Positions 4,963-45,263 of a DNA stretch of 64,000 bases are shown in pieces; within the stretch, counting starts at the first letter, position 1, and every line of letters starts with the position of its first letter. Origin of the DNA: Gammaproteobacteria bacterium (GTDB lineage: Bacteria; Pseudomonadota; Gammaproteobacteria; WOZS01); assembly GCA_011620135.1 (NCBI GenBank), contig WOZS01000058.1:31534-95533 (forward strand), written 5' to 3'. A model generated the notes under the pieces. That model was not told where the DNA came from. It saw only the letters and a program-made list of their open reading frames with translations, and searched no databases. The translations under genes and the position numbers were made by a program.

Positions 4963-7101
4963 TTGAATGCCAAGAAAAGCGCTGTTTGGATCGGAGCACC
5001 TTATCCACTGGGTGCCACATGGGATGGTCTGGGCGTGAACTTCGCGCTCTTTTCGGATCATGCCGAAAAAGTAGAGCTGTGTCTGTTCGATGAAAGCGGC
5101 GAGCACCAGGTGGAAAGCATCACGCTGCCGGAGTGTACCGACAGGATTTTTCATGGCTATCTGCCCGAGGCCCGCCCCGGGCTGCTGTATGGCTATCGGG
5201 TCTATGGGCCCTATGACCCGCTAGCCGGCCACCGCTTCAATCACCATAAGCTGCTGCTGGATCCCTATGCCCGGGTGATTACCGATCACTTCCAGTGGCG
5301 TGACGAACACTTTGGCTATACCGTGGGCCATGAGCAGGAGGATCTCTCCTTCGATGAGCGCGACAGTGCCCCGTTTGCCTTGCGCGCCAAGGTGATCGAC
5401 CCGGCCTTCACCTGGGGCGACGACCGCAGTCCACGCATTCCCTGGCACGACACGGTGATCTATGAATGTCATGTCAAGGGCCTCACCAAGCTGCACCCGC
5501 TGGTCCCTGAGGCACTGCGGGGGACGTATGCCGCACTCGCCACCAAGCCCGTCCTCGATCATTTGAGGCAGTTGGGGGTGACGGCCATCGAGCTCATGCC
5601 GGTGCATGCCTTCATGAGGGATCGCATGCTGGTGGACCGCGGCCTCACCAACTACTGGGGCTACAATTCGATCGGCTACTTTGCCGCGGAGAACCACTAT
5701 TCCTCAACCGGCTTGGTGGGCGAGTTCAAGACCATGGTGAAAGCCATCCATGCCGCAGGCATGGAGGTGATCCTGGATGTGGTCTATAACCATACCGCAG
5801 AAGGCAATCACATGGGGCCCACGCTGTCGTTCCGGGGCATCGATAACAAGGCGTATTACCGGCTGGTGGATGGCGACCAGAGGCACTACATGGACTATAC
5901 GGGTTGCGGGAATACCCTCAACATGATGCATCCCAGGGTGCTGCAGCTGATCATGGACAGCCTGCGCTACTGGGTGCTGGAGATGCATGTGGACGGCTTC
6001 CGCTTCGACCTGGCCTCGGCGTTGGCCCGGGAGCTGCACGAGGTGGACCGCCTTGGTGCCTTTTTCGACATCATCTGCCAGGACCCGGTGCTCTCCCAGG
6101 TGAAACTGATCGCCGAGCCCTGGGACATCGGCGAGGGTGGCTACCAGGTGGGCAATTTTCCCGTGGGCTGGGCGGAATGGAACGGCAAATTCCGTGACTC
6201 GGTGCGCGCCTACTGGAAGGGTGATGGTGGCCTGATCGGCGATCTGGCCTATCGGCTCACCGGATCCAGCGATCTCTATGGGGACGATGGCCGCAGTCCA
6301 TCGGCCAGCATCAATTTTGTTACTGCCCATGACGGTTTCACCATGATGGACCTGGTCTCCTACAATTCAAAGCACAACGAGGCCAACGGCGAGGAGAACC
6401 GCGACGGCGACAACAACAACATCAGTTGGAACTGCGGCGTCGAAGGGCCCACGGACGATCCGACCATCCAGGCGTTGCGCCACCGCCAGGTGCGCAACCT
6501 CCTCGCGACCCTGTTTCTCTCCCAGGGCGTGCCCATGCTGCTCATGGGTGATGAGATGGGCCGGTCCCAGCAGGGCAACAACAACGCCTATTGCCAGGAC
6601 AACGAGCTCAGCTGGCTCGATTGGTCCCTGGTGGAACAAAACGCCGCTCTCCTGGCCTTTACCCAGCGCGCCATTGCGCTGCGCCAGCGCCATCCCGTTT
6701 TGCACCGGCGCCATTTCTTCCATGGTCGCAACATCAAGGGCCATGACATCAAGGACATCATGTGGCTCAATCCCAACGGTCACGAGCTCACCGATGAGGA
6801 ATGGGGGCATGACTTTGCCCGTTCGCTGGGCGTGTTCCTCGGTGGACATGGCTTGGATGAGCGGGATTATCAGGGCCGCCCCCTGGAAGACGACAACATG
6901 CTGCTGTTGCTCAATGCCCATGCCGACCAGGTGAGTTTCATGCTGCCCAAGCTCGCCCGCAACGGTCGTTGGACACCCCTGCTGAGCACAGCTGACACCC
7001 AGTTCAAGGCAAGCTATAGCCATGGTGTCAAGCTGGCCGTGCCAGGCCGCACCTTGATCCTGCTGGGGGACGGCCAGTATGACCATGAGAAATCCGCCTG
7101 A
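4963..7101 (+). CDS. glgX: glycogen debranching enzyme GlgX/TreX
   Basis: TTG start with AGGAG RBS. N-terminus [17 protein letters not shown] and GH13 catalytic motifs ([12 protein letters not shown]) match GlgX. Confidence 0.9.
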
Positions 7102-8909
7102 TGGAGACTCTGTTCGGGCCGCGCCTCGAGCCCGGGGGTGTCACATTCCGGCTTTGGGCGCCAGCCATCCAAGAAGGCCAGTTGGCCGTGTACCTGGAGC
7201 AGGATGGTACCAGGCTGCCCATGGTGGGCTGTGGTGAGGGTTGGTTCGAGGCACATTGTGACCAGGCCGCCCCGGGTATGCTGTACCGCTTCGATGTGGC
7301 CGGCGAACGCCTGCCAGATCCCGCCTCACGCTTCCAACCCAAGGGCGTCCATGGTCCCAGCGAGGTCATCGACCACAGCACATGGCGCTGGCACGACCAG
7401 CACTGGACGGGCCGACCCTGGACGGAGACAGTGCTCTGCGAGCTGCATGTGGGTACCTTCACCGCGGCTGGCACCTTCGCAGGCGTCATCGAGCGGTTGG
7501 ATTATCTGGCTTCCATGGGTATCACGGCCATCGAGCTCATGCCCATCGCCGCCTTTTCCGGCAAGCGCAACTGGGGATACGATGGCGTGCTGCCCTATGC
7601 GCCCTCGGAAAATTATGGGCGCCCCGAAGACCTGCAGCACTTGGTGGATCAAGCCCATCTTCGCGGGTTGATGGTCTTTCTGGATGTGGTGTACAACCAT
7701 TTCGGGCCCGATGGCAACTACCTGCACCGCTATGCGCCGCAATTGTTTACCAAGGCTTACCAGACGCCCTGGGGAGAGGCGGTGGCCTTCGAAAACGAGC
7801 AGGCCGCGCGGCGCTTTGTCATCGAAAATGCCCTGTACTGGCTGGAGCACTTCCATATCGACGGGCTGCGCCTCGATGCCGTCCATGCCATCTTTGACAG
7901 CTCGCCGGTCCATGTGCTCGACGAACTGGCAGAAGCCGTGGCCGCAGGGCCGGGCCGGACCCGGCAGATCCATCTTGTCCTGGAAAACGAGAAAAACCAG
8001 GCCCATTACCTCGGTCGTGCCCAGGGTGGCTACCGTGCCCAATGGAATGATGATGTGCATCATGCCGTGCGGGTGATCGCCACGGGTGAAAAGGAAGGAT
8101 ACTACCAAGACTATCAGGACGACCCGATCAGCCTGCTTGGCAAGGGTATTGCCGAAGGCTTCATTTATCAGGGGCAGGTCTCGCCGCACAGCGGCAAGCC
8201 GCGGGGCACGCCCAGTGCCCAGTTGCCGCCGTGGTGCTTCGTCAACTTCATCCAGAACCACGACCAGGTGGGCAACCGGGCGTTGGGCGAGCGCTTTACC
8301 ACGCTGGCGCCACGCCCGCGCCTGGAGGTGCTGCTGGGCGTGGTGCTGCTGGCTCCTGGCATTCCCATGCTGTTCATGGGTGAGGAATATGGCGAACAGG
8401 CGCCCTTCCTGTTCTTCTGTGATTTTCATGGCGCTCTTGCCGATGCGGTGCGCGAAGGCCGCCGCCGGGAGTTTGCCCATTTCTCTGCCTTTGCCGACGA
8501 GGCCTCCCGCGCTCGCATCCCGGATCCCAATGCCGCGGCCACATTCAAGCACAGCAGGCTCACCTGGCCTGCTGTGGCCGAGGGCGACACCGCCTGGTTC
8601 ATGGCGCGCTATGCCCATTTCCTGGGCCTGCGCCGGCGCTTCGTGGTGCCATGGCTCGAGGGCGCGACTCGGGGTGGCTGGATGCTGCGTGGCCCAGGAG
8701 GTGGCTTGGTGGTGCACTGGCCAATGGGGGCAGGCATGCTTTATGGTGTGACAGCCAATCTTGCAGAAAAGCCCTTGGCCATGCTGCGCCCCAAGGGGGT
8801 GTGTGTGGGCACCGTGGGTGACGTGCAAGGGATGGTGCAAGGTGCGGTGCCGGAGCTGGTGCTGGGATCATGGAGTGCTGCCTGGTGGCAGGATGGCTGC
8901 CATGGATAA
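7101..8909 (+). CDS. treZ: malto-oligosyltrehalose trehalohydrolase
   Basis: GH13 TreZ-like (FRLWAP..., DVVYNHFGP, GLRLDAV). TGATG overlap with the glgX stop. Confidence 0.85.
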   Translation: METLFGPRLEPGGVTFRLWAPAIQEGQLAVYLEQDGTRLPMVGCGEGWFEAHCDQAAPGMLYRFDVAGERLPDPASRFQPKGVHGPSEVIDHSTWRWHDQHWTGRPWTETVLCELHVGTFTAAGTFAGVIERLDYLASMGITAIELMPIAAFSGKRNWGYDGVLPYAPSENYGRPEDLQHLVDQAHLRGLMVFLDVVYNHFGPDGNYLHRYAPQLFTKAYQTPWGEAVAFENEQAARRFVIENALYWLEHFHIDGLRLDAVHAIFDSSPVHVLDELAEAVAAGPGRTRQIHLVLENEKNQAHYLGRAQGGYRAQWNDDVHHAVRVIATGEKEGYYQDYQDDPISLLGKGIAEGFIYQGQVSPHSGKPRGTPSAQLPPWCFVNFIQNHDQVGNRALGERFTTLAPRPRLEVLLGVVLLAPGIPMLFMGEEYGEQAPFLFFCDFHGALADAVREGRRREFAHFSAFADEASRARIPDPNAAATFKHSRLTWPAVAEGDTAWFMARYAHFLGLRRRFVVPWLEGATRGGWMLRGPGGGLVVHWPMGAGMLYGVTANLAEKPLAMLRPKGVCVGTVGDVQGMVQGAVPELVLGSWSAAWWQDGCHG

Positions 8910-11841
8910 TGCAAAAGCACAGGATGCTGCCGACAGCCAGGCGGCAAAGGGTGCCCAGGAGCCCCCCATACCCCGAGCCACCTACCGCATACAATTCAAC
9001 AAGGACTTCGGCTTCCGCAAGGCTGCGGCCCTGGCGCCCTATCTTGCGAGGCTCGGCATCTCCCATCTCTATGCCTCGCCCTACCTGAAGGCCCGCCCGG
9101 GCAGCAGCCATGGCTACGACATCATCGACCACAACGCCCTCAATCCCGAGCTGGGCAGCGAGAGCGACTACCAGGCCATGGTCAAGGCGCTGCAGGACCA
9201 TGGGCTGTCCCAGATTCTGGATGTGGTGCCCAACCACATGGGAGTCATGGGAGCGGACAATCAATGGTGGCTGGATGTGCTGGAAAATGGTCCGGCTTCC
9301 CAGTATGCCAATTTTTTCGACATCGACTGGTCTCCGCTCAAGAACGAACTCAAGAACAAGGTGCTGCTGCCTGTCCTGGGCAAGTCCTATGGTGAAGCCC
9401 TGGAGGCAGGAGAGCTTGTGCTGTCCTTTGACGAGGCCAGCGGCTCCTTTGCCATTCATTACTTCGAGCACCTCTTTCCCATCGACCCTGTGGACTATGC
9501 CGCCATCCTCAAGCTGAGGGAGGCCGAGCAGGCCAGGGAGATCGGAGCCAAGACCCTGCCCGAGTTCCAAAGCCTGATCTCGGCATTGGCGAAATTACCG
9601 CCGCGCAGCGCCAGGAAAAAGGAAGCCCTGGAGGAACGCGCCCGGGACAAGGACATCCTCAAGCGACGCCTCGCCTTTTTGTGGGATATGGACGATGGCG
9701 TGCAGGGCTACATCCAGAGCACCATGGCCACCTTTGCCACCGTGACCCAGCCGCTGCAGGAAAGCCCCTTGCACAGGCTGCTGGAAAATCAGGCCTATCG
9801 CCTGGCCCACTGGCGCACAGCCAGCGAGGAGGTCAATTACCGGCGCTTCTTTGATATTAACGATCTGGCAGGGATCTGCATGGAACGCCCCGAGGTCTTC
9901 GAGGCCACCCATCGGCTTATCCTGCAACTGGTGGCCGATGGTGCCCTGAGCGGCCTGCGCATCGATCATCCTGATGGCATGTATGATCCCGCCAAATACT
10001 TTACTCAGCTGCGGGACGCGGTGGCGGCCTTGGGCAGCAGGCCAGACGGCACCAGGCATCAGGTGTACCTGGTGGTGGAAAAGATTCTTGCTCCCTATGA
10101 GGGTCTGCACCGGGACTGGCCGGTTGATGGCACCACGGGCTATGTCTTTCTCAATGTGCTCAATGGCCTGTTCATCGAGGCGCGCACCATAGCCGCCCTG
10201 AGACGTTTCTATGATCGTTTCACAGGCCGCAGCAATCTCTTCGAGGAAACACTCTACGAGAGCAAGAAGCTCATCATGGCGACCACCCTGGCAAGTGAGC
10301 TTGCCGTGCTGACGAACCTGCTCGGGCGCCTGTCCGAGGCCCATCCCAAGACCCGCGACCTGACGCTGGGCAGCCTGTATCATGCCCTGATGGAGGTGGT
10401 GGCCTGTTTCCCTGTCTACCGCACGTACCGGGATGCCCAGGGTCTCGCTGAGACGGATCGGCGCTATGTGGAATGGGCGCTGGTCCAGGGCCAGAAGCGC
10501 AACCCCAACATCGAGCGCAGCGTTTTTGCCTTTTTACGCCAGGTGCTGCTGCTGGAGCTGCCCGAAGTGGAGGATTGCCCCAGCACCACTCTGTTGACCG
10601 CTCTGTTGCACTTCATCATGAAGTTGCAGCAGTTCACCGGACCTGTGATGGCCAAAGGACTGGAGGATACCGCCTCCTACAATCACCATGTCCTGGTTTC
10701 GGCCAACGAGGTGGGCGGCGATCCGGGTCGACTGGGACTGTCGGTGCGAGCCTTTCACCGCCGCAACAGCGAAAGGCTCAAGTTCTGGCCCCATGAGATG
10801 CTGGCCACCACCACCCACGACACCAAGCGCTCCGAGGATGTGCGTGCCCGCATCAACGTCATCTCCGAGATGCCCCGCCTATGGCAGAGCCGGGTGCGCC
10901 GCTGGGAAAAGCTCAATGCCATGCGCAAGGTGGAGGTGGATGAGGAAAGCCTGCCGGAGCGCAATACCGAGTATCTGTTCTACCAGACCCTGATCGGCAC
11001 CTGGCCGTTTTTTGGGGCAAACCAGGATGCGGACCGTAGCGTTTATGCACAGCGTTTGGTGGCTTATATGCTCAAGGCGGTGCGGGAGGCCAAGGGGCGT
11101 ACCTCGTGGGTGCGGCCCGACGAGGGTTATGAAAAAGCGCTGGAACAGTTCGTGCGCGCCGTGATCATGCCGCGGCGTGGGGAAGGGCGCGATCCCTTCC
11201 TGGATGATTTTTTGCCCTTTGCCGAGATGGTGGCTACATTGGGGCTGTACAACACGCTTTCCCAGGTCGTTTTGAAATACACGGTACCTGGCGTACCTGA
11301 CCTGTATCAGGGTGCTGAGCTGCTGACATTGACGCTCACAGACCCGGACAATCGCAGCCCGGTGGATTATGAGCGGCGCATGGCCATGCTGGATGAGGTG
11401 GAACACAGCAACCGGCAGCAGGGATTTACGCCACAGCCCTGGCTGAATCTGGGCGAGGCCGACCGGCTCAAGCTGCATGTCACCTCCCGTTTGCTGGGTT
11501 TGCGGCGCGACCACGCGATCGTGCTGCAACAAGGGGATTATCAGCCCGTTGCCGTGCACGGCCCCTGGCGCGACCATGCGGTGGCGTTTGCTCGTATTTA
11601 CAACAAAAGCGCCATCCTGGTGGTGGCAGGGTTGTTCTATCACCGCCTGACCAATGGGGCACAGCGCCTGCCCATTGGCCCGGTTTGGGATGGCAGTTAT
11701 CTGGATCTTCCCTGGAAGGGGCCATGGCAGGACGTATTGAGCTCCTGTCGGCACGACGATGACCAGAAAAAACTCCAGCTGTCCCATGTTTTTGCCGAGC
11801 TGCCCGTGGCAGTGCTGCGGTTCGGCATGGAGTCTTCTTGA
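8893..11841 (+). CDS. treY: malto-oligosyltrehalose synthase
   Basis: ATYRIQFNKDFGF...LYASPYLKA...DVVPNHMG are TreY motifs. The start overlaps the treZ end (ATG 8893 or 8902). Confidence 0.85.
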   Translation: MAAMDNAKAQDAADSQAAKGAQEPPIPRATYRIQFNKDFGFRKAAALAPYLARLGISHLYASPYLKARPGSSHGYDIIDHNALNPELGSESDYQAMVKALQDHGLSQILDVVPNHMGVMGADNQWWLDVLENGPASQYANFFDIDWSPLKNELKNKVLLPVLGKSYGEALEAGELVLSFDEASGSFAIHYFEHLFPIDPVDYAAILKLREAEQAREIGAKTLPEFQSLISALAKLPPRSARKKEALEERARDKDILKRRLAFLWDMDDGVQGYIQSTMATFATVTQPLQESPLHRLLENQAYRLAHWRTASEEVNYRRFFDINDLAGICMERPEVFEATHRLILQLVADGALSGLRIDHPDGMYDPAKYFTQLRDAVAALGSRPDGTRHQVYLVVEKILAPYEGLHRDWPVDGTTGYVFLNVLNGLFIEARTIAALRRFYDRFTGRSNLFEETLYESKKLIMATTLASELAVLTNLLGRLSEAHPKTRDLTLGSLYHALMEVVACFPVYRTYRDAQGLAETDRRYVEWALVQGQKRNPNIERSVFAFLRQVLLLELPEVEDCPSTTLLTALLHFIMKLQQFTGPVMAKGLEDTASYNHHVLVSANEVGGDPGRLGLSVRAFHRRNSERLKFWPHEMLATTTHDTKRSEDVRARINVISEMPRLWQSRVRRWEKLNAMRKVEVDEESLPERNTEYLFYQTLIGTWPFFGANQDADRSVYAQRLVAYMLKAVREAKGRTSWVRPDEGYEKALEQFVRAVIMPRRGEGRDPFLDDFLPFAEMVATLGLYNTLSQVVLKYTVPGVPDLYQGAELLTLTLTDPDNRSPVDYERRMAMLDEVEHSNRQQGFTPQPWLNLGEADRLKLHVTSRLLGLRRDHAIVLQQGDYQPVAVHGPWRDHAVAFARIYNKSAILVVAGLFYHRLTNGAQRLPIGPVWDGSYLDLPWKGPWQDVLSSCRHDDDQKKLQLSHVFAELPVAVLRFGMESS

Positions 11842-12003
11842 GTCCCCCGCAGCGCTTGCACAGCTGTTTTTCCCGTGGCCTGGCCTGCTCTGCGGCGGTT
11901 TTTGGTTCAGGAGATGAACATCTTGCCTCTGGGGCAGGCAGCGCCGAGGCCATGGCGCTACCCTCACAAAGCCATCCAGCTGCTCATCCAGAGAAGTCGG
12001 TTG

Positions 12004-12360
12004 CTATGGATCTGGCATGTCATCGGTAAGGCGCAGTGTGGTAGCCAGCCGATCCTCGAGGAGATGCTGCTCGACTACCGTGATCATATCCTCGGGATTG
12101 ATGCAGCGATACCAGGTGCCATCCGGATAGACCACTGCCACAGGACCCAGCTCGCAGCGCCCCAGGCAACCGGTGCGGCTCACCTGCACCCCCTGAGCCT
12201 GTGGGCCTGCGGCACGTAATGCTGCCTTGGCCTTTTGAAAGGCCTCTTCACCCTGCATGGCGCCACAACCGGGACGGGCAGGATTGTCGCGACGGTTGGT
12301 GCAGATCATCAGATGGTGCCGATAAAAGCCCCTGGGCTTCTCGGGGGTCTGCCTGGTCAT
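12004..12360 (-). CDS. thioredoxin-like [2Fe-2S] ferredoxin
   Basis: HLMICTNRR...PGCGAM...TGCLGRCELGPVAVVYPDGTWY matches the COG3411 ferredoxin pattern. Confidence 0.75.
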   Translation of the reverse strand: MTRQTPEKPRGFYRHHLMICTNRRDNPARPGCGAMQGEEAFQKAKAALRAAGPQAQGVQVSRTGCLGRCELGPVAVVYPDGTWYRCINPEDMITVVEQHLLEDRLATTLRLTDDMPDP

Positions 12361-12396
12361 GGTATTGACATCCTGGGCGCTTTCTGATAAGTTTGC

Positions 12397-12426
12397 TTTA
12401 TACTAAGTATTGGTTTTCAATGTCAA
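12397..12426 (-). promoter_or_regulatory. sigma70-like promoter for the ferredoxin gene
   Basis: Minus strand TTGACA (rc 12421-26) - 18 nt - TATAAA (rc 12397-402), about 30 nt upstream of the fdx ATG. Confidence 0.35.
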
Positions 12427-12478
12427 TGGATCGCTTCATCTTGATTCGTTGATGATGATGCTTGTATCATAGCCAAGC

Positions 12479-12507
12479 AAAAAAAACCCCCCTGGGTTGC
12501 AGGGGGG
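12479..12507 (-). terminator. rho-independent terminator (minus strand)
   Basis: CCCCCCTG-GGTTG-CAGGGGGG hairpin (12487-12507), followed on the minus strand by U8 (A-run 12479-12486). Confidence 0.5.
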
Positions 12508-12599
12508 AAAGAGCAAAAGGTCTGAACATCAGAACCCTTTGCTTAAGGAGGAGACCTGTTCGCATTGGCCAAAGGCAAGCTGGCCTGTCTTTGGCCCAT
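12479..12599 (-). ncRNA. candidate small RNA (promoter, 5' hairpin, CU-rich stretch, intrinsic terminator)
   Basis: Minus-strand -35 TTGACA (rc 12628-33) and -10 CATACT (rc 12606-11). 5' hairpin GGCCAAAG/CTTTGGCC (12567-12596). UCUCCUCCUU stretch (rc of 12545-54). Terminator 12479-12507. No credible ORF. Confidence 0.22.
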
Positions 12600-12623
12600 A
12601 CATGCAGTATGGCAGATTCCGCA

Positions 12624-12652
12624 TTGATGTCAATACCTTGGAAAGGTATCAA
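12624..12652 (+). promoter_or_regulatory. promoter with overlapping palindromic operator upstream of the GT39 gene
   Basis: TTGATG (12624-29) - 17 nt - TATCAA (12647-52). A perfect IR ATACCTT-GGA-AAGGTAT (12633-12649) spans the spacer and -10. Confidence 0.3.
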
Positions 12653-12747
12653 TTAATTTAACCAATTCATATCCTCAACAAAGTATATCGTGCCTGTATA
12701 TGGGCGCCATGTGAGGGGGTTATTTCTGCATAGCATAGCTTCTTAGC

Positions 12748-14337
12748 GTGAGAAGTCCATCAACCACCTTGTCCAGGTGGCGCTGTCTGCTCATGGCCTG
12801 TTTCCTGATGTGGGGGCTGAGCAGCGCTTTCCTGCGTCCGCTGTATCCGCTCGATGAGACCCGTTATGCCAGCGTGGCCTGGACCATGCAGCGCCTGGGC
12901 AGCTGGTGGCCCATGCTGGGGGAAACGCTCTATACCCACAAGCCACCATTCTTGTTCTGGCTCATGCGTCTTGCCTGGTGGGTGGGGGGTTTTTCGGCAC
13001 CGCCGCTGCGCTTGCTGATGTTGGCATTGACCATGGCCTGCCTGTGGCGCAGCATGGCCCTGTCTGGGGCGCTGTGGGGCAGACGCCCGGAGGTTGGGCT
13101 GGTGGCCGCCTTGCTGGCTGGGAGCTGGTATGTGGCCACCATGGGTACCGCTGTGTATTTCGACATGGCGCTCACCTTGTGGGTTGTACTGGCCATCGAG
13201 GGCTTGTGGCGAGCTGCCTGTGGGCAGCGCTGGGGTTTTGCCTGGTCGGGATGTGCCCTGGGTCTGGGGATCCTGACCAAAGGCCCTTTGATTGGCCTGT
13301 TCGTCATCGGCCCCATGCTGGCGATGCCCTGGATCATGGGGCATCCCATCAAGGGCTGGTGGCGCGGCATGATGTTGACCCTGCTATTAGCCGCGGTAGC
13401 CCCGCTGGGCTGGTTTGTCGCCTTGGCCATGGGGCATGGTAGCGGTGTCGTGCGAGCCATTATCTGGAACCAGGGGGCCGGAAGGGTGGTGGCGGCCTTC
13501 GCCCATGCCAGACCCTGGTGGTGGTATGTCCCTTTGGTTCTGGCGCTATGGCTGCCATGGGTGTGCTGGCCTGTGGTGTGGAAGGTGCGCTGGCGCCTGG
13601 TACGCGGACCGGGGAGCCGGCTGTGCCTGGCCTGGATGGTGCCTGCTTTTGTGTTGCTGTCCATGGTCAGCGGCAAGCAGCCCCACTATCTGCTGCCGTT
13701 GTTTCCCGCGGTGGCTTTGCTGCTGGGTCGCGGTCTGGAGCGGCTGCCGTCGCCATCCTCCAGGGATCATGGGCTCGTGGGCCCAGCTCTCGTCTTTCTT
13801 GCGATTGGTCAGGCGCCATTGCTGGGATGGTGGCTGGTGGCAGGCATGCGCACCGCACTCAGCATGGTCATGGTCCTGCTGTGGATGGCAGGTTTTACTG
13901 TGCTGGGTGTCTTGTTGGTATGGAAAGGCCGTGGGATGAGCATCACAGGGCAGGTGATGTGGCTGGCGGTCTGTGCGTTGCTGGGCTGGTGTCTCGGCCA
14001 GCCGGTGCTGGTCGAGGCGCTGGCCTCCCGCTATGACCTGCGTCCTTTTGCCAGGGAGATCGCCCATCTCCAGGCCCAGGGGCTGACTGTGGTCAAGGCG
14101 GGAGCCTATCATGGCCAATTCGATTTTCTGGGTCAGCTCAACACGCCCATCCATGCCCTGCCCCGCGATGGGGTCTGTGCCTGGGCCAAGACCCATCCGC
14201 AGGGCATGGTCATCGTGGAGTTGCCGGGGTCATGGCGGGCTGATGCCAGTCCCGTGCTGCTGCAACCGTACCGCGGCCATCAGCTTGCCATCCTGCCTTC
14301 CAAGGCAGCCTGCGGGGTCATGTCACAGCTGCAGTGA
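12748..14337 (+). CDS. ArnT/PMT-like glycosyltransferase family 39 membrane protein
   Basis: PLDETRYASVAWTM..YTHKPPF..TKGPL are GT-C ArnT signature motifs. Multi-pass hydrophobic protein. GTG start; alternative ATG at 12793. Confidence 0.8.
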   Translation: MRSPSTTLSRWRCLLMACFLMWGLSSAFLRPLYPLDETRYASVAWTMQRLGSWWPMLGETLYTHKPPFLFWLMRLAWWVGGFSAPPLRLLMLALTMACLWRSMALSGALWGRRPEVGLVAALLAGSWYVATMGTAVYFDMALTLWVVLAIEGLWRAACGQRWGFAWSGCALGLGILTKGPLIGLFVIGPMLAMPWIMGHPIKGWWRGMMLTLLLAAVAPLGWFVALAMGHGSGVVRAIIWNQGAGRVVAAFAHARPWWWYVPLVLALWLPWVCWPVVWKVRWRLVRGPGSRLCLAWMVPAFVLLSMVSGKQPHYLLPLFPAVALLLGRGLERLPSPSSRDHGLVGPALVFLAIGQAPLLGWWLVAGMRTALSMVMVLLWMAGFTVLGVLLVWKGRGMSITGQVMWLAVCALLGWCLGQPVLVEALASRYDLRPFAREIAHLQAQGLTVVKAGAYHGQFDFLGQLNTPIHALPRDGVCAWAKTHPQGMVIVELPGSWRADASPVLLQPYRGHQLAILPSKAACGVMSQLQ

Positions 14338-14349
14338 GTGTTGTTGTCT

Positions 14350-15726
14350 TCAGGCAACCAGGCGATAGCAGGGATGATAGCTTTCGCTGTAGAGACGCAT
14401 GCGCTGCTCGCGGATCAGGTGGCTCAGCAGGCGGTCCATGGCGTGCAGCAGATGGGGGTCACCATGCAGCTCATAGGGGCCGAATTCGGCCACCTGCCGT
14501 ATGCCCCATTCCTTGACATTGCCGGTGACGATGCCCGAGAAGGCGCGACGCAGCTGGGCTGCCAGCTGGTCAGGGCTCTGCTGGCGCTCCAGATTCAAGG
14601 TGGCCATGGCTTCATGGGTGGAGAGAAAGGGTTGCTGGAAGAGGGGATCGATGGTCAAGGCCCAGTTGAAATAAGCTGGATCGCCATGATGGCGTCGATA
14701 TTCCCGATACAGGGCCATGGCAGCCGCCATGGCGCGGGCGGCCTGGGAGGGGTGGCCATAGGCAATGGTCAGGCGCTGGATGGCGGCCTCACCCAAGGTC
14801 TGGCGCAGGAACTCCAGGAGCTCTTCAAGATAGGCCCGGCTGTCATCCGGGCCGGTGAGGATCACGGGATAAGGGAGATCGCTGTTGTCAGGATGCATCA
14901 GAATGCCCAGCAGGTAGAGGAGTTCTTCTGTGGTGCCAGGTCCTCCGGGAAAGATGATGATGCCGTGGGCGAGGCGCACGAAGGCCTCGAGACGCTTTTC
15001 CATGTCCGGCAGCACGACCAGTTCATTGACGATGGGGTTGGGGGGTTCTGCGGCAATGATGCCCGGTTCGGTGATGCCCACATAGCGTCCCTGGTTCAGG
15101 CGCTGTTTGGCGTGGCCGATGGTGGCTCCCTTCATGGGCCCCTTCATGGCGCCGGGACCGCAGCCGGTGCCGATGTGCATGCCGCGCAACCCAAGCTCGT
15201 AGCCCACCTTCTTGCTGTATTCGTACTCTTCCCTGGAAATGGCGTGACCACCCCAGCACACGGCCAGTGGGGTAGTCTCCTCCGGCACGAGGACTCTTGC
15301 ATTGCGCAGGATGTGAAAGACAGCATTGGTGATGCCGGCTCCACTGGCGAGGTCGAAGGTGGGATTTTCCAGCACCTCGGTCTGGGTGAAGATCAGGTCG
15401 CGCACCAAGGCGAAGAGGTGCTCGCGAATGCCCCGCATCAGGCAGCCATCCACGAAGGCCTCTGGGGGAGGGTTGTGGAGCTGCAGTTGCAGGCCGCCTT
15501 CCCCGTTGAGCACCTGGATATCGAAGTTTTCATGGCGCTGAAACAACGCCCGGGCATCGTCGGCGCTGGTGCCGCAGGCCAGGACCGCAAGTGAGCAGAT
15601 GCGCAGCAGATCATGCAGATTGCCCTTGGCGGTGGTATGAAAACGCTGAATCTCCTGCCTCGAGAGCACCTCCAGGGGGCCTTTGGGTTCAACGATCACC
15701 GGGCTGATCGGCTCAGGGGGGTTCAT
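14350..15726 (-). CDS. ppnN: nucleotide 5'-monophosphate nucleosidase PpnN (LOG family)
   Basis: Near co-linear with E. coli PpnN/YgdH (RICSLAVL..FENFDI..NPPPEAFVDG..PGGPGTTEELLYLLGILM..RRAFSGIVTGNVKE..). Confidence 0.9.
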   Translation of the reverse strand: MNPPEPISPVIVEPKGPLEVLSRQEIQRFHTTAKGNLHDLLRICSLAVLACGTSADDARALFQRHENFDIQVLNGEGGLQLQLHNPPPEAFVDGCLMRGIREHLFALVRDLIFTQTEVLENPTFDLASGAGITNAVFHILRNARVLVPEETTPLAVCWGGHAISREEYEYSKKVGYELGLRGMHIGTGCGPGAMKGPMKGATIGHAKQRLNQGRYVGITEPGIIAAEPPNPIVNELVVLPDMEKRLEAFVRLAHGIIIFPGGPGTTEELLYLLGILMHPDNSDLPYPVILTGPDDSRAYLEELLEFLRQTLGEAAIQRLTIAYGHPSQAARAMAAAMALYREYRRHHGDPAYFNWALTIDPLFQQPFLSTHEAMATLNLERQQSPDQLAAQLRRAFSGIVTGNVKEWGIRQVAEFGPYELHGDPHLLHAMDRLLSHLIREQRMRLYSESYHPCYRLVA

Positions 15727-15751
15727 GGCGGGATAGCGCTCATAAGACGGA

Positions 15752-16144
15752 TCAGTCTGTTTCAGGACTGAACTCCCGTTCGTGGCGCGTTTGGCATTCA
15801 TAGCAGCGCGTGGCCGTGGGTTGCGCCTTGAGGCGGGGTAGTGCTATCTCGCTGGCGCAGTCCCTGCAGATGCCATAGGTGCCCTCGGCCAGGCGCTTTT
15901 GCGCCTGTTCGATTTCGCGTATTTCCTGGACATGACGATGGATGTTGGCAAACCCGATATCCATGAGCAGATCGGCAACCGACTCTTCCCCCACATCATG
16001 GACATGTCCGGCCAGATCCTGGAAATGCTCCTGGTCAGCCGTCAGCAGCTCCTGGCGAATGGTCTGCAGCAGGGCTGTTTTGCGCTCTGCCAGCATGGAG
16101 CGCAGCTCGGCTAGGTTCTCTTTATCAGGTGTATGCTCAGCCAC
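15752..16144 (-). CDS. DksA/TraR-family C4 zinc-finger protein
   Basis: C-terminal CRDCASEI...ATRCYECQ four-Cys finger preceded by a helical segment, 130 aa. Confidence 0.75.
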   Translation of the reverse strand: MAEHTPDKENLAELRSMLAERKTALLQTIRQELLTADQEHFQDLAGHVHDVGEESVADLLMDIGFANIHRHVQEIREIEQAQKRLAEGTYGICRDCASEIALPRLKAQPTATRCYECQTRHEREFSPETD

Positions 16145-30294: not shown

Positions 30295-31647
30295 ATGACC
30301 CGGTGGAGCAGGCGCCAGGCCCTGGGGGCCGCCCTGGGTGTGGCGGCAACCCCTCTGCTGCCACGGCGGGTTTTTGGCCAGGCGGGGTCGCTGGCACAGC
30401 CTATCCATGGGGTGCATGCCAGTCTGATCACAGCACAGCGTGCCCTCACCTGGTTTTCCGCCGATTCCGCACCCTATACCGTCGTGCTGATGCCCTGGCC
30501 GGCCCAGGGGGCAGCTGGGCAGGAGGACGCGCTGGTACTTGCCAGCACGGCAACACCCAGCTACGGTATTCCTCTGTTCACCCATCGCGTCCTGCTGGAT
30601 GGGGTGGTTCCGGGGCAGGCCCTGCGCTATCGTATCGGCGCCAATGGCCAATGGTTGCATGAGGGGGAATTACCGGCTCTTCCTGCAGAAGCCTGGCGCT
30701 TCATCCATTTTGGAGACCATGCCCAGAGTGCGGCCAGCCGGGCCGTGGTGGCCGGCATACGGCAGCGCCGCCCAGACCTGGTGCTCATCGCAGGGGATCT
30801 GGCCTATGCCAATGGCGAGCAATCCCTTTGGGACAGCTATTTTCGCATGCTGGAACCCTTGGCCTCCGCCATCCCTGTGCTGAGTTGTCCCGGCAATCAC
30901 GAGCAGAAAGACGGCAGTGGCCAGGGCTATCTGAGTCGCATCACCCAGCCAGGGCGCGGTGCCTGGTATGCCTTTGACTGGGATCGCGTGCATTTTTTCT
31001 TCAGTACCGCAGGCTGTCTTGTGGAAGGGCCTGCCTCGGTGTGGGCCCTGCTGGAAGAGGTGTTGGCCATGGAGCAGGACCTGAGTGCCGCCGCGGCGCG
31101 ACGGGCCAGGGGTGAGATCGACTTCATCATCGTGGTGCAGCACTACCCCATCTGGACCGATGAGGATGGGCGCGATCCTGCGGATTTCACCCTGGTGGCC
31201 CTGGAAGAGGGCATGCTGCTGCGCTATGGCGTGGATCTTCTTCTTGTGGGGCATGACCACATCTACGAGCGCAGCCATCCCATGGGGCGCGGCAGGCCGC
31301 GCCCCGGCGGCTACGTGCAGGTGACCCAGGGCGGCGGCGGCCAGTCTTTGTATGATGTGATTCCGCACCCCGCTGCCTGGTCAGTGCTGGCCACGCCGCG
31401 CTGGGGGTTCAGCGAGCATGAGGTGACGGGAGCCAGGATGCGGGTGACCAGCTATAGTGTGGACGACAGCGCCAACCAGTTGTTGCCGTCCGGCCAGCTG
31501 GCCATATTGGACAGCTTTGAGCATGCAGCGCGGGATGCCGCCACCCGGCGCGATTTTGCCCTGCCCCCACGCCCCAGGGAAGAGCTGCTGGTGGGCTTTG
31601 CACAGGTGGTGGCCCATACCATTGACCGCAACCGTTTTGCCCAGTAA
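30295..31647 (+). CDS. Tat-secreted metallophosphoesterase (purple acid phosphatase-like)
   Basis: SRRQALGAALGVAA twin-arginine signal. GDLAY..GNHE..GHDH calcineurin-like motifs. Confidence 0.75.
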   Translation: MTRWSRRQALGAALGVAATPLLPRRVFGQAGSLAQPIHGVHASLITAQRALTWFSADSAPYTVVLMPWPAQGAAGQEDALVLASTATPSYGIPLFTHRVLLDGVVPGQALRYRIGANGQWLHEGELPALPAEAWRFIHFGDHAQSAASRAVVAGIRQRRPDLVLIAGDLAYANGEQSLWDSYFRMLEPLASAIPVLSCPGNHEQKDGSGQGYLSRITQPGRGAWYAFDWDRVHFFFSTAGCLVEGPASVWALLEEVLAMEQDLSAAAARRARGEIDFIIVVQHYPIWTDEDGRDPADFTLVALEEGMLLRYGVDLLLVGHDHIYERSHPMGRGRPRPGGYVQVTQGGGGQSLYDVIPHPAAWSVLATPRWGFSEHEVTGARMRVTSYSVDDSANQLLPSGQLAILDSFEHAARDAATRRDFALPPRPREELLVGFAQVVAHTIDRNRFAQ

Positions 31648-42168: not shown

Positions 42169-42483
42169 ATGGGTATAGGCAGGATCGATGGTAAAGGGCC
42201 TCCTGTGCCGGGCGTGCGGCCAGCTGCGCTGGAAGGTAAACCGCTGGTGCAGCAGGAGCGCAGCCTTCCGGTTTCCCAGGAAGACACAGTCTCGGTCGCT
42301 TTTGGTTCCCTGGTCCAGAGGCTCGTGGCGGGTGCTGTGGAGAGCCACGCTGTGGATCCAGCACGCCTCCAGGCCTTGCGCCAGGCCATCACCGATGGCA
42401 CCTACACCATCGACCCAGACCAGATCGCCCAGCGCATGGTGGACATGGAGCGCGGCCTGTGGTTTGGTCTGCCCTGGACATAA
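42169..42483 (+). CDS. flgM: anti-sigma-28 factor FlgM
   Basis: C-terminal LQALRQAITDGTYTIDPDQIAQRMVDME is the FlgM sigma-28-binding helix; about 105 aa. Confidence 0.7.
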   Translation: MGIGRIDGKGPPVPGVRPAALEGKPLVQQERSLPVSQEDTVSVAFGSLVQRLVAGAVESHAVDPARLQALRQAITDGTYTIDPDQIAQRMVDMERGLWFGLPWT

Positions 42484-42495
42484 GGAGGAGCGACC

Positions 42496-43134
42496 ATGGA
42501 CGATTCCTGGATTCGCCGCCAGGACCAGCAGAGCCCAGGACCAGCAGAGCCAGGACACGAGTCCAGGGTTCCCCGGTATCCCGGGCAAACTGAGCGTGGC
42601 GGGGATGGGTGCACTGGGGCGGATGCCGGGGATGGGGATGCGGCCTGTGAGAGACACGTGCTCGAGTTGCTCGCCAACCTGGAGGCGGTGTTGCGTGCCG
42701 AGCACCAGGTGTTGGTGGAGGCCGCCGCCGGTGCCCTGACCACCCTGGCACGCCAGAAAATGGCGTTGCTGGCCTCCATCGAGCAGTCCTGCCAGGAATT
42801 GGGAATGGCCCGGGGACGGGCATGGCTCGAGGAAGACCGTGCTGCCATCGAGGTCTTGGCACGCTGTCGCGGTCTCAACCACATCAATGGCAACCTGATC
42901 GCCCTGCGTCGCAGACAAGTGGCTCAGGAGCTCGCGGTTCTGGGTGTCTCCTTGCCAGAAACAGAGCCGGCAGAAGCACTGCTGGCGATGCCTGGTCCAG
43001 GGGCTGACCAACATGGATCAGTCCATGCCTCAGCACATGGGGCTTCAGGGTGGACGGCGGCTGCCGCCATCCCCACAGAGCACGACCCCCAGGGCGAGGC
43101 GGTGCCACGCCGCAACATCCAGCATCTGGCCTGA
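42496..43134 (+). CDS. flgN: flagellar export chaperone FlgN-like
   Basis: Position immediately after flgM. Helical LELLANLEAVLRAEHQVL...LLASIEQ pattern. Low-complexity N-terminal extension. Confidence 0.55.
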   Translation: MDDSWIRRQDQQSPGPAEPGHESRVPRYPGQTERGGDGCTGADAGDGDAACERHVLELLANLEAVLRAEHQVLVEAAAGALTTLARQKMALLASIEQSCQELGMARGRAWLEEDRAAIEVLARCRGLNHINGNLIALRRRQVAQELAVLGVSLPETEPAEALLAMPGPGADQHGSVHASAHGASGWTAAAAIPTEHDPQGEAVPRRNIQHLA

Positions 43135-43164
43135 ACCCTCACCCATGTTGGATAAGCCATCACC

Positions 43165-43950
43165 ATGAGCACTACCCAGCCATCCCCGGACCTGCACCTC
43201 CTGCACAACCGCATGGAGCGCATCGCCGTGTTGCGACGCTTATGTAAAGAACGCCGGGAGCTCTCCTGCGTGCTGCTGGATGATGAGGGTCGACCCCATG
43301 ATGACAAAATCTATCAAACCGTGATCACCGCCGTGGATGCGCAGGCCGGTCAGCTGCAGGTCAGCCCCCTCAATCCAGCCGAGGGACGGGCTGCGTTGTG
43401 CAATGGTGCCTTGTTGAGTTGTTCTGGCCAGCTGGAGCGCGAAACGATCTCTTTCACCACCAACTGGCTCAGGAACGTCGGTCTTCTCAGGGTTCACCAC
43501 GTCCTGGCTCTGCCGCATAGCATCTACTCCAGCGAATCGCGCCAGGCGGAACGTATCGAGGTGCCCAAGACGGTGCCCTCCAAGCTGGTTCTGCATGATG
43601 GTCCGCGACAGGTGGCCCAGGGCTGGGTTGCCGACATTTCCGCAGGTGGCGTCTCTGGCGTGGTGACCGCCATAGAGGATCTGGATTACCTTTTGGCCCC
43701 AGGTACCGAACTGTTCCCCTGTTCGCTTGAGATCAAGGGCTACCTGCAGTTGACTCAATGGCGACTGAGGCTGCGCTTGGTGCGCTGGAGGCAGCAGCGC
43801 GATTATCTGCTGGGAGGCGAATTCGTGCAGCTGACACCGCAAGCCCAACGCGATGTGGAGCTGGCAGTGGCCGAGCTGGAGCGCGTGCGCTTGGCACAGT
43901 TGGCGCAGATGCATGAAGAGCAATCCGGGCAGCAGTCCGGAGGGGGCTAA
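43165..43950 (+). CDS. PilZ-domain flagellar brake protein (YcgR/FlgZ-like)
   Basis: RQAER (RxxxR) and DISAGG (DxSxGG) c-di-GMP binding motifs with an N-terminal YcgR-like domain, between flgMN and fliC as in Pseudomonas flgZ. Confidence 0.7.
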   Translation: MSTTQPSPDLHLLHNRMERIAVLRRLCKERRELSCVLLDDEGRPHDDKIYQTVITAVDAQAGQLQVSPLNPAEGRAALCNGALLSCSGQLERETISFTTNWLRNVGLLRVHHVLALPHSIYSSESRQAERIEVPKTVPSKLVLHDGPRQVAQGWVADISAGGVSGVVTAIEDLDYLLAPGTELFPCSLEIKGYLQLTQWRLRLRLVRWRQQRDYLLGGEFVQLTPQAQRDVELAVAELERVRLAQLAQMHEEQSGQQSGGG

Positions 43951-44085
43951 ACATCACGGCGGTATTGCCGCTCAATAAGCACGAGACATAGGTTTTGGGG
44001 GATCTCAGAAGCCCCATCTGAGCAATCGAGGCTACCAAAAGCTTGACTGCATTGTTTTTTATATCGAGCATCGAGCTTGATGTGT

Positions 44086-44114
44086 TAAGGAAAGTGTTAA
44101 GGAATGTATAAGGA
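44086..44114 (+). promoter_or_regulatory. three tandem TAAGGA motifs in the fliC 5' leader (candidate CsrA/RsmA sites)
   Basis: GTGTTAAGGAAA / GTGTTAAGGAAT / GTATAAGGAGAA repeat units at 44086-91, 44098-103 and 44109-14. The last overlaps the SD, 10 nt before the ATG. Confidence 0.3.
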
Positions 44115-44123
44115 GAAAGCAGT

Positions 44124-45263
44124 ATGATCGTTGTGAATACCAACCCAACATCGCTTCTGGCGCAAAACAATCTCACCCAAAGCACCAGTAGCCTGACCCA
44201 GGCCATCAACCGGCTCTCGTCTGGCTCGCGGATCAATAGCGCAGCCGATGATCCTGCCGGCCTTGCGGTGGCCTCGCCTCTGCAGTCCCGGGTGGCCGGC
44301 CTGTACCAGGCGAGCCGCAACGCATTGGAATCCACCAACGTGACCGACATCGCCGACAGCGCCCTCAGCGTGATGCAGGACAACCTTACCCGTATCCGCC
44401 AGATATCCGTACAGGCTGCCAACGGCATCTATAACAAGCAGAATCGTGCCAATCTCCAGCTCGAGGTGGATCAGCTGACCCAGGAAATCTCCCGCCTCGT
44501 CAAGAGCACCAACTACAACGGCTACCAGCTGTTAGGCTCCAAAAAGTCGCAGTTTACCTTCCAGATCGGTTCCGATGGCGATGGCTCCAAGACAGTCAGC
44601 TCGAGAAAGGCCGCCAAGGTGAACGGCAAGGACGCAATGACCCGGCAAGGCCCTTCGACCAAATACCAGGTCATCAACGGCGAGCGGTTGCGCCAATCTG
44701 CTGTGAGGCCTGCCGGGAATGCAACCAACACCATCACCTCAAGCTTCAATAAGCTGACGGGCAAGGGCAAGCATACGCCTGATTTCATCAGCAAACCCCT
44801 GAACATAGTGACAAACCTTACAAACAAAACATTGAATGTGACGGGGAAAGTCGGGAACGCTCTCACACTGGGCAGGGTCGAGGCCTTCGGCAACTTGGCG
44901 ACCAGGGCGCCAGCTGGCAAGGGGCTCAATACCTATGACGGCAATCTGGCTGCCACGGGCTCGCTCAGTGTCAAGACCCAGTCTGCGGCGCGGCAGACCA
45001 TCAAGGATGTCACCAGCGACGTCGATCTGGTCACCGCGACCCGCGCCCAGTTCGGTGCGTTGGCAAACCGCTTTGCGTATGTGCAGCGCACCAATGATGC
45101 GGCGTCCCAGGCCTCGGAGAGCTCCATCAGTCGCATCATGGATGCCGACTACGCTCGAGAGAGCGCCAACTATGCGTCTTCCCAGATCCGTCAGCAAGCA
45201 GGTGCCGCGGTGTTGGCCCAGGCTAACGCCATGCCGCAGATTGCGCTTACGCTGCTGCGGTAA
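44124..45263 (+). CDS. fliC: flagellin
   Basis: N-terminal NTNPTSLLAQNNL..LSSGSRINSAADDPAG and C-terminal ...QQAGAAVLAQANAMPQIALTLLR flagellin domains. AT-richer central variable region. Confidence 0.95.
   Translation: MIVVNTNPTSLLAQNNLTQSTSSLTQAINRLSSGSRINSAADDPAGLAVASPLQSRVAGLYQASRNALESTNVTDIADSALSVMQDNLTRIRQISVQAANGIYNKQNRANLQLEVDQLTQEISRLVKSTNYNGYQLLGSKKSQFTFQIGSDGDGSKTVSSRKAAKVNGKDAMTRQGPSTKYQVINGERLRQSAVRPAGNATNTITSSFNKLTGKGKHTPDFISKPLNIVTNLTNKTLNVTGKVGNALTLGRVEAFGNLATRAPAGKGLNTYDGNLAATGSLSVKTQSAARQTIKDVTSDVDLVTATRAQFGALANRFAYVQRTNDAASQASESSISRIMDADYARESANYASSQIRQQAGAAVLAQANAMPQIALTLLR

Follow-up and report, generated by a model that had tools for sequence, protein, structure and literature searches.

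A candidate gene for a CU-rich small regulatory RNA in the spacer between a ferredoxin and a glycosyltransferase gene of a gammaproteobacterium

Locus and predicted transcription unit

The analysed stretch of 64,000 nucleotides (the window; positions 31,534 to 95,533 of contig WOZS01000058.1, assembly GCA_011620135.1, Gammaproteobacteria bacterium) carries a candidate small RNA (sRNA) unit on the minus strand (12599..12479), situated in the spacer between a glycosyltransferase gene and a ferredoxin gene. On one side the spacer is bounded by fdx (12360..12004, minus strand), which encodes a 118-aa thioredoxin-like 2Fe-2S ferredoxin and lies downstream of the sRNA on the same strand. On the other side, upstream of the sRNA, the gene for a 529-aa PMT_2/ArnT-like glycosyltransferase (GT; 12748..14337, plus strand) is oriented divergently. 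Beyond GT follows ppnN (14350..15801, minus strand), the closest upstream gene on the sRNA strand, which is located 1.75 kb off, across GT in antisense. A probable malto-oligosyltrehalose synthase is encoded on the far side of fdx. The GC content of the intergenic region is 44-46%, compared with 62% for the window, in agreement with the AT-rich setting described in an initial annotation of this DNA.

Relatives of the locus were gathered via exact-protein look-ups of ferredoxin and PpnN homologues, which yielded 17 metagenome loci representing about seven lineages, with ferredoxins 71-95% identical to that of the window. The gene order in these 17 loci is PpnN, GT, spacer, fdx, (methyltransferase) and TreY, as in the window, and the sRNA element was found in the same place and orientation in all 17 spacers. 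Searches with PpnN and GT homologues for extra lineages returned the same clade only. The next relatives beyond the clade share 60% identity for PpnN (Methylococcales, Nevskiales and Steroidobacteraceae) and 37% for GT. The host clade is very thinly sampled, with some seven lineages within a collection of 15 billion proteins.

A promoter for the predicted RNA was identified by a consensus scanner as the near-consensus TTGACA-16-TGcCATACT (10/12 matches plus the TG of an extended -10 element), so that the element TTGACA-16 nt-CATACT, claimed before for the minus strand, is indeed present at 12633-12606. The -35 hexamer TTGACA (12633-12628) is invariant in all lineages and is embedded in a conserved GGTATTGACAT motif, 3' of a T-rich tract. 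The extended -10 element TGcCATACT (12606..12614, with the hexamer CATACT at 12611-12606) is conserved in all lineages, one of which shows the variant TGtCATACT, and it stays in place while the 16-nt promoter spacer varies. Within the region 9000-16000 this promoter ranked first of four promoter-like sites, shuffled sequences giving 1.8 +/- 1.3 sites. The 5' end of the RNA was placed at the A located 7 nt past the -10 element and the 3' end at the U8 tract. The predicted transcript of 121 nt (12599..12479, minus strand) was recovered with exactly these coordinates, at 135 bits, by a covariance model, R1. Positions 12600-12660, which had been included in the original extent of 12479-12660, are promoter and upstream DNA and lie outside the predicted RNA; the location of the unit itself was correct.

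The RNA ends in an intrinsic terminator (12507-12479, minus strand), formed by CCCCCCUG-caacc-CAGGGGGG with an 8-bp GC stem and a 5-nt loop, and followed by U8. This GC hairpin with its U8 tail, which was part of the original description, was the top terminator match, and it is the sole perfect-stem hairpin with at least six T behind it on both strands of the full 64 kb. A U-rich linker, CUCUUU (12511-12508), leads into the terminator stem, and the T8 is invariant in all lineages. Because its reverse complement has no U tract, the terminator is unidirectional. It also faces the 'wrong' way for the flanking genes, as had been pointed out: since GT runs in the opposite direction, its transcript is not ended here, and the terminator sits before fdx, not after it. 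Canonical intrinsic terminators are nearly missing from the window as a whole.

The RNA is laid out, from 5' to 3', as a first stem-loop (SL1), an open CU-rich segment, a second stem-loop (SL2), the linker CUCUUU and the GC terminator with U8, all read on the minus strand. SL1 (12596-12567), the 5' hairpin already seen in the initial annotation, consists of GGGCCAAAG/CUUUGGCC and an inner stem, and is variable in sequence with its pairing kept. The predicted single-stranded CU-rich seed CAGGUCUCCUCCUU (12558-12545) contains CCUCCU(UA), which is the core of the 16S anti-Shine-Dalgarno sequence. The mean probability of being unpaired is 0.70 in the window for UCUCCUCCUU (12554-12545), and 0.6-0.7 for the seed in six of the seven lineages. 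SL2 (12543-12512) is a 14-bp hairpin, AGCAAAGGGUUCUGA-ugu-UCAGACCUUUUGCU, obtained by fold prediction and paired in 97.5% of the cells of the alignment. The whole segment between the 5' hairpin and the terminator had earlier been taken as unstructured. This holds for the CU stretch itself; SL2 was missed, and since it occupies 12543-12512, the open segment measures only about 23 nt. The predicted minimum free energy (MFE) of a 128-nt RNA covering the unit is -55.9 kcal/mol, a value that none of 200 shuffled sequences equalled (z = -4.2).

Conservation, covariation and strand

The covariance model R1, built from eight distinct sequences, recognised one site per locus in all 17 loci, with scores of 101-145 bits. 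No second sRNA copy was detected in the 64-kb window by BLAST or by the covariance model. Nor did the model detect the sRNA in a locus of Lautropia whose ferredoxin homologue is more distant. Matches to the exact pattern GGTCTCCTCCTNAAGCAAA, six in GTDB species genomes and 16 in JGI metagenomes, were rejected as chance occurrences in unrelated sequence, since none of the 22 was recognised by the covariance model.

Conservation within the spacer is selective. Across lineages, the elements that persist are the promoter hexamers, a core of 13 nt (CAGGUCUCCUCCU), SL2 and the terminator with its U8, and 13 consecutive bases of the seed, CAGGTCTCCTCCT, are invariant in all of them. In the four to five more distant lineages, identity to the window was 74-82% over the whole sRNA, 82-100% in the seed core, 79-91% in the terminator and 74-89% in the promoter. 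The spacer flanking the sRNA on both sides showed 51-67% and the fdx coding sequence 75-88%. SL1 is the least conserved part of the sRNA (57-72%), yet it is still paired. In lineage L004 its distal stem is entirely different, with UGGGGG/CCCCCA instead of AAAG/CUUU.

The pairing pattern was evaluated in a model-guided alignment. Standard pairs were found in 92.4% of the cells, compared with 34-59% when the partners were slid by one to three columns, and four pairs covary, with both sides changed. Three of the 11 pairs of SL1 are altered on both sides, and SL2 carries one compensatory change, from U-A to C-G. On four of five measures, none of 500 structure shuffles equalled the alignment; on the remaining one, the number of pairs changed on both sides, four did. 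This covariation is supportive, not overwhelming, given a small sample in which SL2 and the terminator hardly vary. Taken together with the 17 syntenic loci and the selective conservation, these compensatory changes support the independent sRNA gene of about 120 nt that had been proposed from the window.

G.U pairs outnumber A.C mismatches by 18 to 5 when the structure is read on the minus strand, and the structure was assigned to this strand because of this ratio, the U8 tail and the promoter. The opposite view would be that the structure belongs to a plus-strand leader of GT, or that the spacer contains DNA-level signals only (promoters, operators), with no accumulating minus-strand sRNA. 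Such a view could draw on the strand symmetry of the hairpins, on an antisense MFE that is equal or lower in most lineages, and on several conserved spacer blocks that can be read as plus-strand promoter elements. It is nevertheless very improbable. In addition to the ratio of 18 to 5, the invariant U8 right behind a GC hairpin is sensible on the minus strand only, and an invariant minus-strand promoter lies at the right distance. Read on the plus strand, the seed gives a perfect AAGGAGG, with no conserved start codon or frame behind it.

The absence of a plausible open reading frame (ORF), as originally asserted, was borne out by the comparison, since no ORF is conserved across lineages. The window RNA, starting from A12599, opens with AUG, and an 18-codon leaderless frame ends at the UAA of CCUUAAG. 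This AUG frame is present only in the lineages of the window, L002 and L004, in the last of which it is shifted by a 4-nt deletion, and the AUG is missing in four lineages. Two longer mechanical ORFs begin upstream of the sRNA promoter, with neither start nor frame conserved. As judged from these comparisons, the sRNA element is non-coding. A type I toxin-antitoxin pair was considered and is not supported, as no ORF with a conserved start codon or reading frame was found.

Flanking genes and opposite-strand elements

The unit lies on the fdx strand, 119 nt upstream of the gene, in every lineage. It could thus represent a 5' leader or attenuator of fdx: transcription would mostly end at the terminator, fdx would be expressed through regulated read-through, and the short RNA would be a by-product or an attenuator-derived sRNA. 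This is conceivable because the unit always precedes fdx and no well-conserved fdx promoter could be defined: no convincing conserved -35/-10 pair was found for this gene, conservation being confined to a TATAnA block and a CAATACT motif. Against this reading, the terminator is a very strong one, with 8-10 GC-rich pairs and U8, inspection revealed no conserved antiterminator pairing, and neither a leader peptide nor an Rfam riboswitch match was present. The window itself contains TTGACA-18-TATAAA between the terminator and fdx. The ribosome-binding sites of fdx are complementary to the seed only over AAGGAG. On balance, a leader function for fdx appears very unlikely.

Some observations concern fdx and its upstream region. 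The ferredoxin ORF has 118 aa in the window, compared with 108 aa called in the homologues of four lineages. The 108-aa version starts about 30 nt further downstream, after a clear AAGGAG (region 12330-12360, minus strand). Because the ATG at 12360 has no Shine-Dalgarno sequence, the true start of fdx in the window is uncertain. A palindrome-like block that is conserved, CAATACTnAGTAT(T/A)(G/A), is located at 12396-12413 (plus strand), in the interval from the sRNA terminator to fdx. In lineage L004 (around 2955-2975) it forms a perfect 21-nt palindrome, ACTCAATACTTAGTATTGAGT. The block resembles an operator. A Fur box was looked for and did not emerge above chance: the best candidates match 12-14 of 19 positions, whereas shuffled sequences averaged 11.3 and reached 14 at most, and the position of these candidates is not conserved.

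Two promoter-like elements were found on the plus strand of the spacer, and both read through the sRNA gene toward GT. The first, P_as1 (12365..12393), reads TTGACA-17-TAAGTT, the 17 nt including TGa, and was flagged by the promoter scanner in L007, L009 and L010. In all seven lineages its hexamers and TG are retained while its spacer has diverged. The second, P_as2 (12441..12470; TTGATT-18-TATCAT), was reported by the scanner and occurs in most lineages with TTGATT or TTGACA as -35 element. Its match reaches 11/12 in L009, L010 and L033. Lineage L004 lacks the element, and in L002 its spacer has only 15 nt. The predicted start of P_as2, at about 12477, abuts the complement of the U8 3' end of the sRNA. 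It is uncertain whether P_as1 and P_as2 are part of the sRNA unit.

The -35 regions of P_as1 and of the sRNA promoter are related by sequence. Within the 64 kb, GGTATTGAC is found exactly two times: one copy belongs to the sRNA -35 region, and the other, inverted and providing the -35 of P_as1, occupies 12361-12369, shortly before the start codon of fdx. Both -35 regions are connected by an inverted repeat of 15 nt with one mismatch, CATGGTATTGACATC / GATGTCAATACCTTG (12358-12372 and 12626-12640), which could be the site of a shared regulator. A mobile element bounded by this repeat was considered and discarded, as there are no other copies and synteny is fixed.

These elements point to a further explanation, in which the minus-strand transcript is mainly a cis-antisense RNA. 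The GT mRNA would start from P_as1 (about 12400) and/or P_as2 (about 12477) and carry a leader of 270-350 nt crossing the sRNA gene, and GT would be controlled by interference of convergent transcription and by a perfect 121-bp duplex. This would be compatible with a role in trans. The persistence of the -35, TG and -10 elements of P_as1 in all seven lineages despite the divergence of its spacer fits such an arrangement, as do the matches of 9-11/12 for P_as2 in most lineages and its start next to the sRNA 3' end. The promoter scan gave no sigma-70-like promoter nearer to GT, whichever lineage was scanned. Since the sRNA terminator lacks a U tract on the plus strand, transcripts of that strand would run through the sRNA gene. 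The inverted repeat shared by the two -35 regions also speaks for this reading. Moreover, the hemB/anti-hemB motif offers a precedent for ambiguity between strands (PMC1950547).

Several of these points can be countered. The -10 element of P_as1 is weak in the window (TAAGTT, 3/6), P_as2 is missing or has the short spacer in the two lineages mentioned, and AT-rich spacers in GC-rich genomes readily yield promoter-like strings. A proximal GT promoter of non-canonical type is also possible. Furthermore, a purely antisense role leaves unexplained why the unpaired core of 13 nt shows no change whereas SL1 drifts with compensation. This contrast argues against antisense pairing as the sole constraint on the RNA. 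A mainly cis-antisense function is hence possible, although rather unlikely. A dual-action RNA, serving as antisense switch in a long GT leader with convergent promoters that share the inverted -35 repeat, and acting in trans on strong GGAGG ribosome-binding sites, e.g. that of a flagellar chaperone-like gene, is more doubtful still.

With regard to GT itself, translation starts at a GTG (12748) with no Shine-Dalgarno sequence, and an invariant TAGCATAGCT lies 5' of it (12731-12750, plus strand). The N-terminus MRSPS..L.RW is kept at the protein level across lineages. Because of this conservation, the 514-aa public call of the protein (P0142) is probably 15 codons short. In lineage L007, GT is found as a 121-aa N-terminal piece (L007 90-455) and a 358-aa C-terminal piece (L040 79-1155) on separate contigs of one JGI sample, which points to an assembly break or to disruption of the gene. 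Farther away in the window, three adjacent alpha-amylase-family genes (712, 602 and 1026 aa) are located at 4963-11841 (plus strand). From their domain content, they presumably resemble a trehalose-from-glycogen cluster of the TreX/TreZ/TreY type.

Seed, known RNA families and significance

Considering the evidence as a whole, the unit at 12599..12479 is probably a stand-alone gene for a trans-acting regulatory RNA of about 121 nt with an exposed seed resembling the anti-Shine-Dalgarno sequence. Transcription would proceed from its own strong sigma-70-type promoter and would be stopped by its own intrinsic terminator. The exposed CU-rich stretch between SL1 and SL2 may mimic the 16S anti-Shine-Dalgarno sequence and act as seed. 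It would pair with GGAGG-type ribosome-binding sites which, in the target mRNAs, are extended 3' by GAGACC(UG), and the flanking GGUCU/CAGG bases could add specificity for sites of the AAGGAGGAGACCUG form. Such pairing is expected to block binding of the 30S subunit and to lower translation. The terminator hairpin, the U8 tail and the U-rich linker may together represent an Hfq-binding 3' module, to judge by sequence likeness. The anti-Shine-Dalgarno character of the CU stretch, suggested in the initial annotation together with occlusion of target ribosome-binding sites, fits the data: the CU part is invariant and predicted to be unpaired, and the only weak similarities in Rfam are to CU-rich sRNAs that target ribosome-binding sites.

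A search for possible targets was made in the window. The longest sites complementary to the seed are TAAGGAGGAG, which lies 5 nt upstream of the ATG at 42496 of a FlgN-like ORF, and two sites inside coding regions. When 207 candidate translation-initiation regions of the window were ranked by duplex energy, the FlgN-like site came first with -23.4 kcal/mol. The FlgN-like ORF (Pfam 26.1 bits, below threshold) belongs to a flagellar gene group at 42481-45263 (plus strand), together with genes for a YcgR-like PilZN protein and flagellin, and it overlaps a longer 302-aa minus-strand ORF which has no Pfam match. A seed-complementary GGAGGAGAC(C) is also present inside the ppnN coding sequence, both in the window (15275-15283, minus strand) and in lineage L004 (88-97), and is absent in the other lineages.

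Comparison of the whole window with Rfam in gathering mode gave two tRNAs only, and so the proposed check by cmscan did not assign the RNA to a family. In E-value mode there were sub-threshold matches only, to the same CU-rich families in the window and in four other lineages. The best of these in every lineage tested, with 20-30 bits, was anti-hemB (RF02837), which scored 27.2 bits in the window and 20.4-29.9 bits in L004, L007, L009 and L010, the gathering score being 49.5. The toxic small RNA family (RF02278) scored 21.2 bits in the window and 19.5-21.6 bits in L004 and L010, with a gathering score of 50, and mmgR was a weaker sub-threshold match. Features shared in the alignments are the GUCUCC/UCCUCC motif, the internal hairpin, the U-rich linker and the GC terminator.

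Anti-hemB, known as ncS04 in Burkholderia cenocepacia, presents the same succession of elements: a CU-rich motif of the UCUCCUCC type, then an internal hairpin, next a U-rich linker and finally a GC terminator with U tract. In that family, however, the CU motif is placed in the loop of hairpin 1, whereas here it forms the open linker between SL1 and SL2 in every lineage. The cmscan alignment deletes both arms of the family's hairpin 1 in the window RNA, which has SL1 as an extra 5' hairpin. The neighbours are fdx and the ArnT-like GT gene in all loci, not hemB, and the host is outside the Burkholderiales. The typical place of anti-hemB is beside hemB, in members of the Burkholderiales and of related families (PMC1950547; bioRxiv 10.64898/2026.09.01.748597). 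The motif was first described with ambiguity over the functional strand, as there is a gene downstream on the opposite strand (PMC1950547), and its expression as an sRNA was later confirmed in Burkholderia (PMC5688073).

RF02278, the Betaproteobacteria toxic small RNA, comprises the 'double-hairpin RNAs' ncS03, ncS05, ncS27 and ncS62, which, like ncS04, are expressed as sRNAs in B. cenocepacia. Toxicity upon cloning in E. coli is a further trait of the family. Its members resemble the window RNA in their unpaired CU-rich stretch of the GUCUCC type, which is complementary to ribosome-binding sites, in their Rho-independent terminator and in their proposed action by occlusion of these sites. They differ in having 57-92 nt, two hairpins and usually two CU stretches, compared with 121 nt, three hairpins and one CU stretch here. 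They also occur in 3-5 copies per genome in Burkholderia, whereas one covariance-model match was found in the 64 kb and one in each related locus. The unpaired CU-rich stretches of double-hairpin RNAs and of other CU-rich candidates were predicted to cover ribosome-binding sites (PMC5688073). For ncS27 of B. cenocepacia, overexpression slows growth and silencing speeds growth (PMC5688073, PMC4603805), and growth is also affected when its CU-rich region is manipulated (PMC5688073). In summary, the window RNA resembles RF02837 and RF02278 on paper and fails them on score, architecture and context.

Among trans-acting RNAs of other groups, the NmsR sibling sRNAs of Neisseria, also called RcoF1/2 or NgncR_162/163, showed no detectable sequence similarity to the window sRNA. 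They are tandem sibling pairs with two CU stretches, and no tandem copy is present here. The likeness lies in CU-rich, unpaired stretches with complementarity to ribosome-binding sites of metabolic genes (PMC5688073; see PMC5362039), and the Burkholderia CU-rich sRNAs were themselves likened to NmsRs by the authors describing them (PMC5688073).

The enterobacterial Hfq-binding module consists of a terminator hairpin, a U tail of 7 nt or more and an upstream U-rich stretch. At the sequence level, the window RNA shares with Hfq-dependent enterobacterial trans-acting sRNAs its own promoter, a conserved single-stranded seed and a U8 terminator preceded by CUCUUU. It departs from them in that the linker is less U-rich in four lineages (CCCUUG/CCCUUA). 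The element is therefore best described as a candidate for a new sRNA family of a familiar kind, CU-rich and anti-Shine-Dalgarno-like, with an Hfq-type architecture.

Several results weigh against an independent RNA acting in trans. The target prediction with the CU-rich region, which had been suggested as a check, did not single out a target: the best value of -23.4 kcal/mol is no better than that of shuffled seeds (mean best -22.1, minimum -27.5 kcal/mol), in a test of low power because only 64 kb of sequence was available. No conserved target site was found among the syntenic neighbour genes. With only about seven, fairly close lineages the depth of the covariation is small, and SL2 and the terminator, being mostly invariant, are uninformative on their own structure. 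Comparison of the MFE of the two strands does not separate them. Finally, since the opposite-strand promoter-like elements are conserved, part of the conservation could serve a plus-strand transcript.

The finding opens no new mechanism; its value lies in annotation and in a clean case of promoter, seed and terminator surviving the decay of the surrounding spacer. If the dual reading in cis and trans were true, one RNA would couple envelope glycosylation to translation control. If transcribed, the element would provide a thinly sampled proteobacterial clade with a new sRNA family, including a covariance model, a defined seed and a rule for targets (GGAGGAGAC at start codons). It would add an example of a CU-rich anti-Shine-Dalgarno sRNA outside the Burkholderia and Neisseria groups, and would fit the view that mimicry of the 16S anti-Shine-Dalgarno sequence arises repeatedly.

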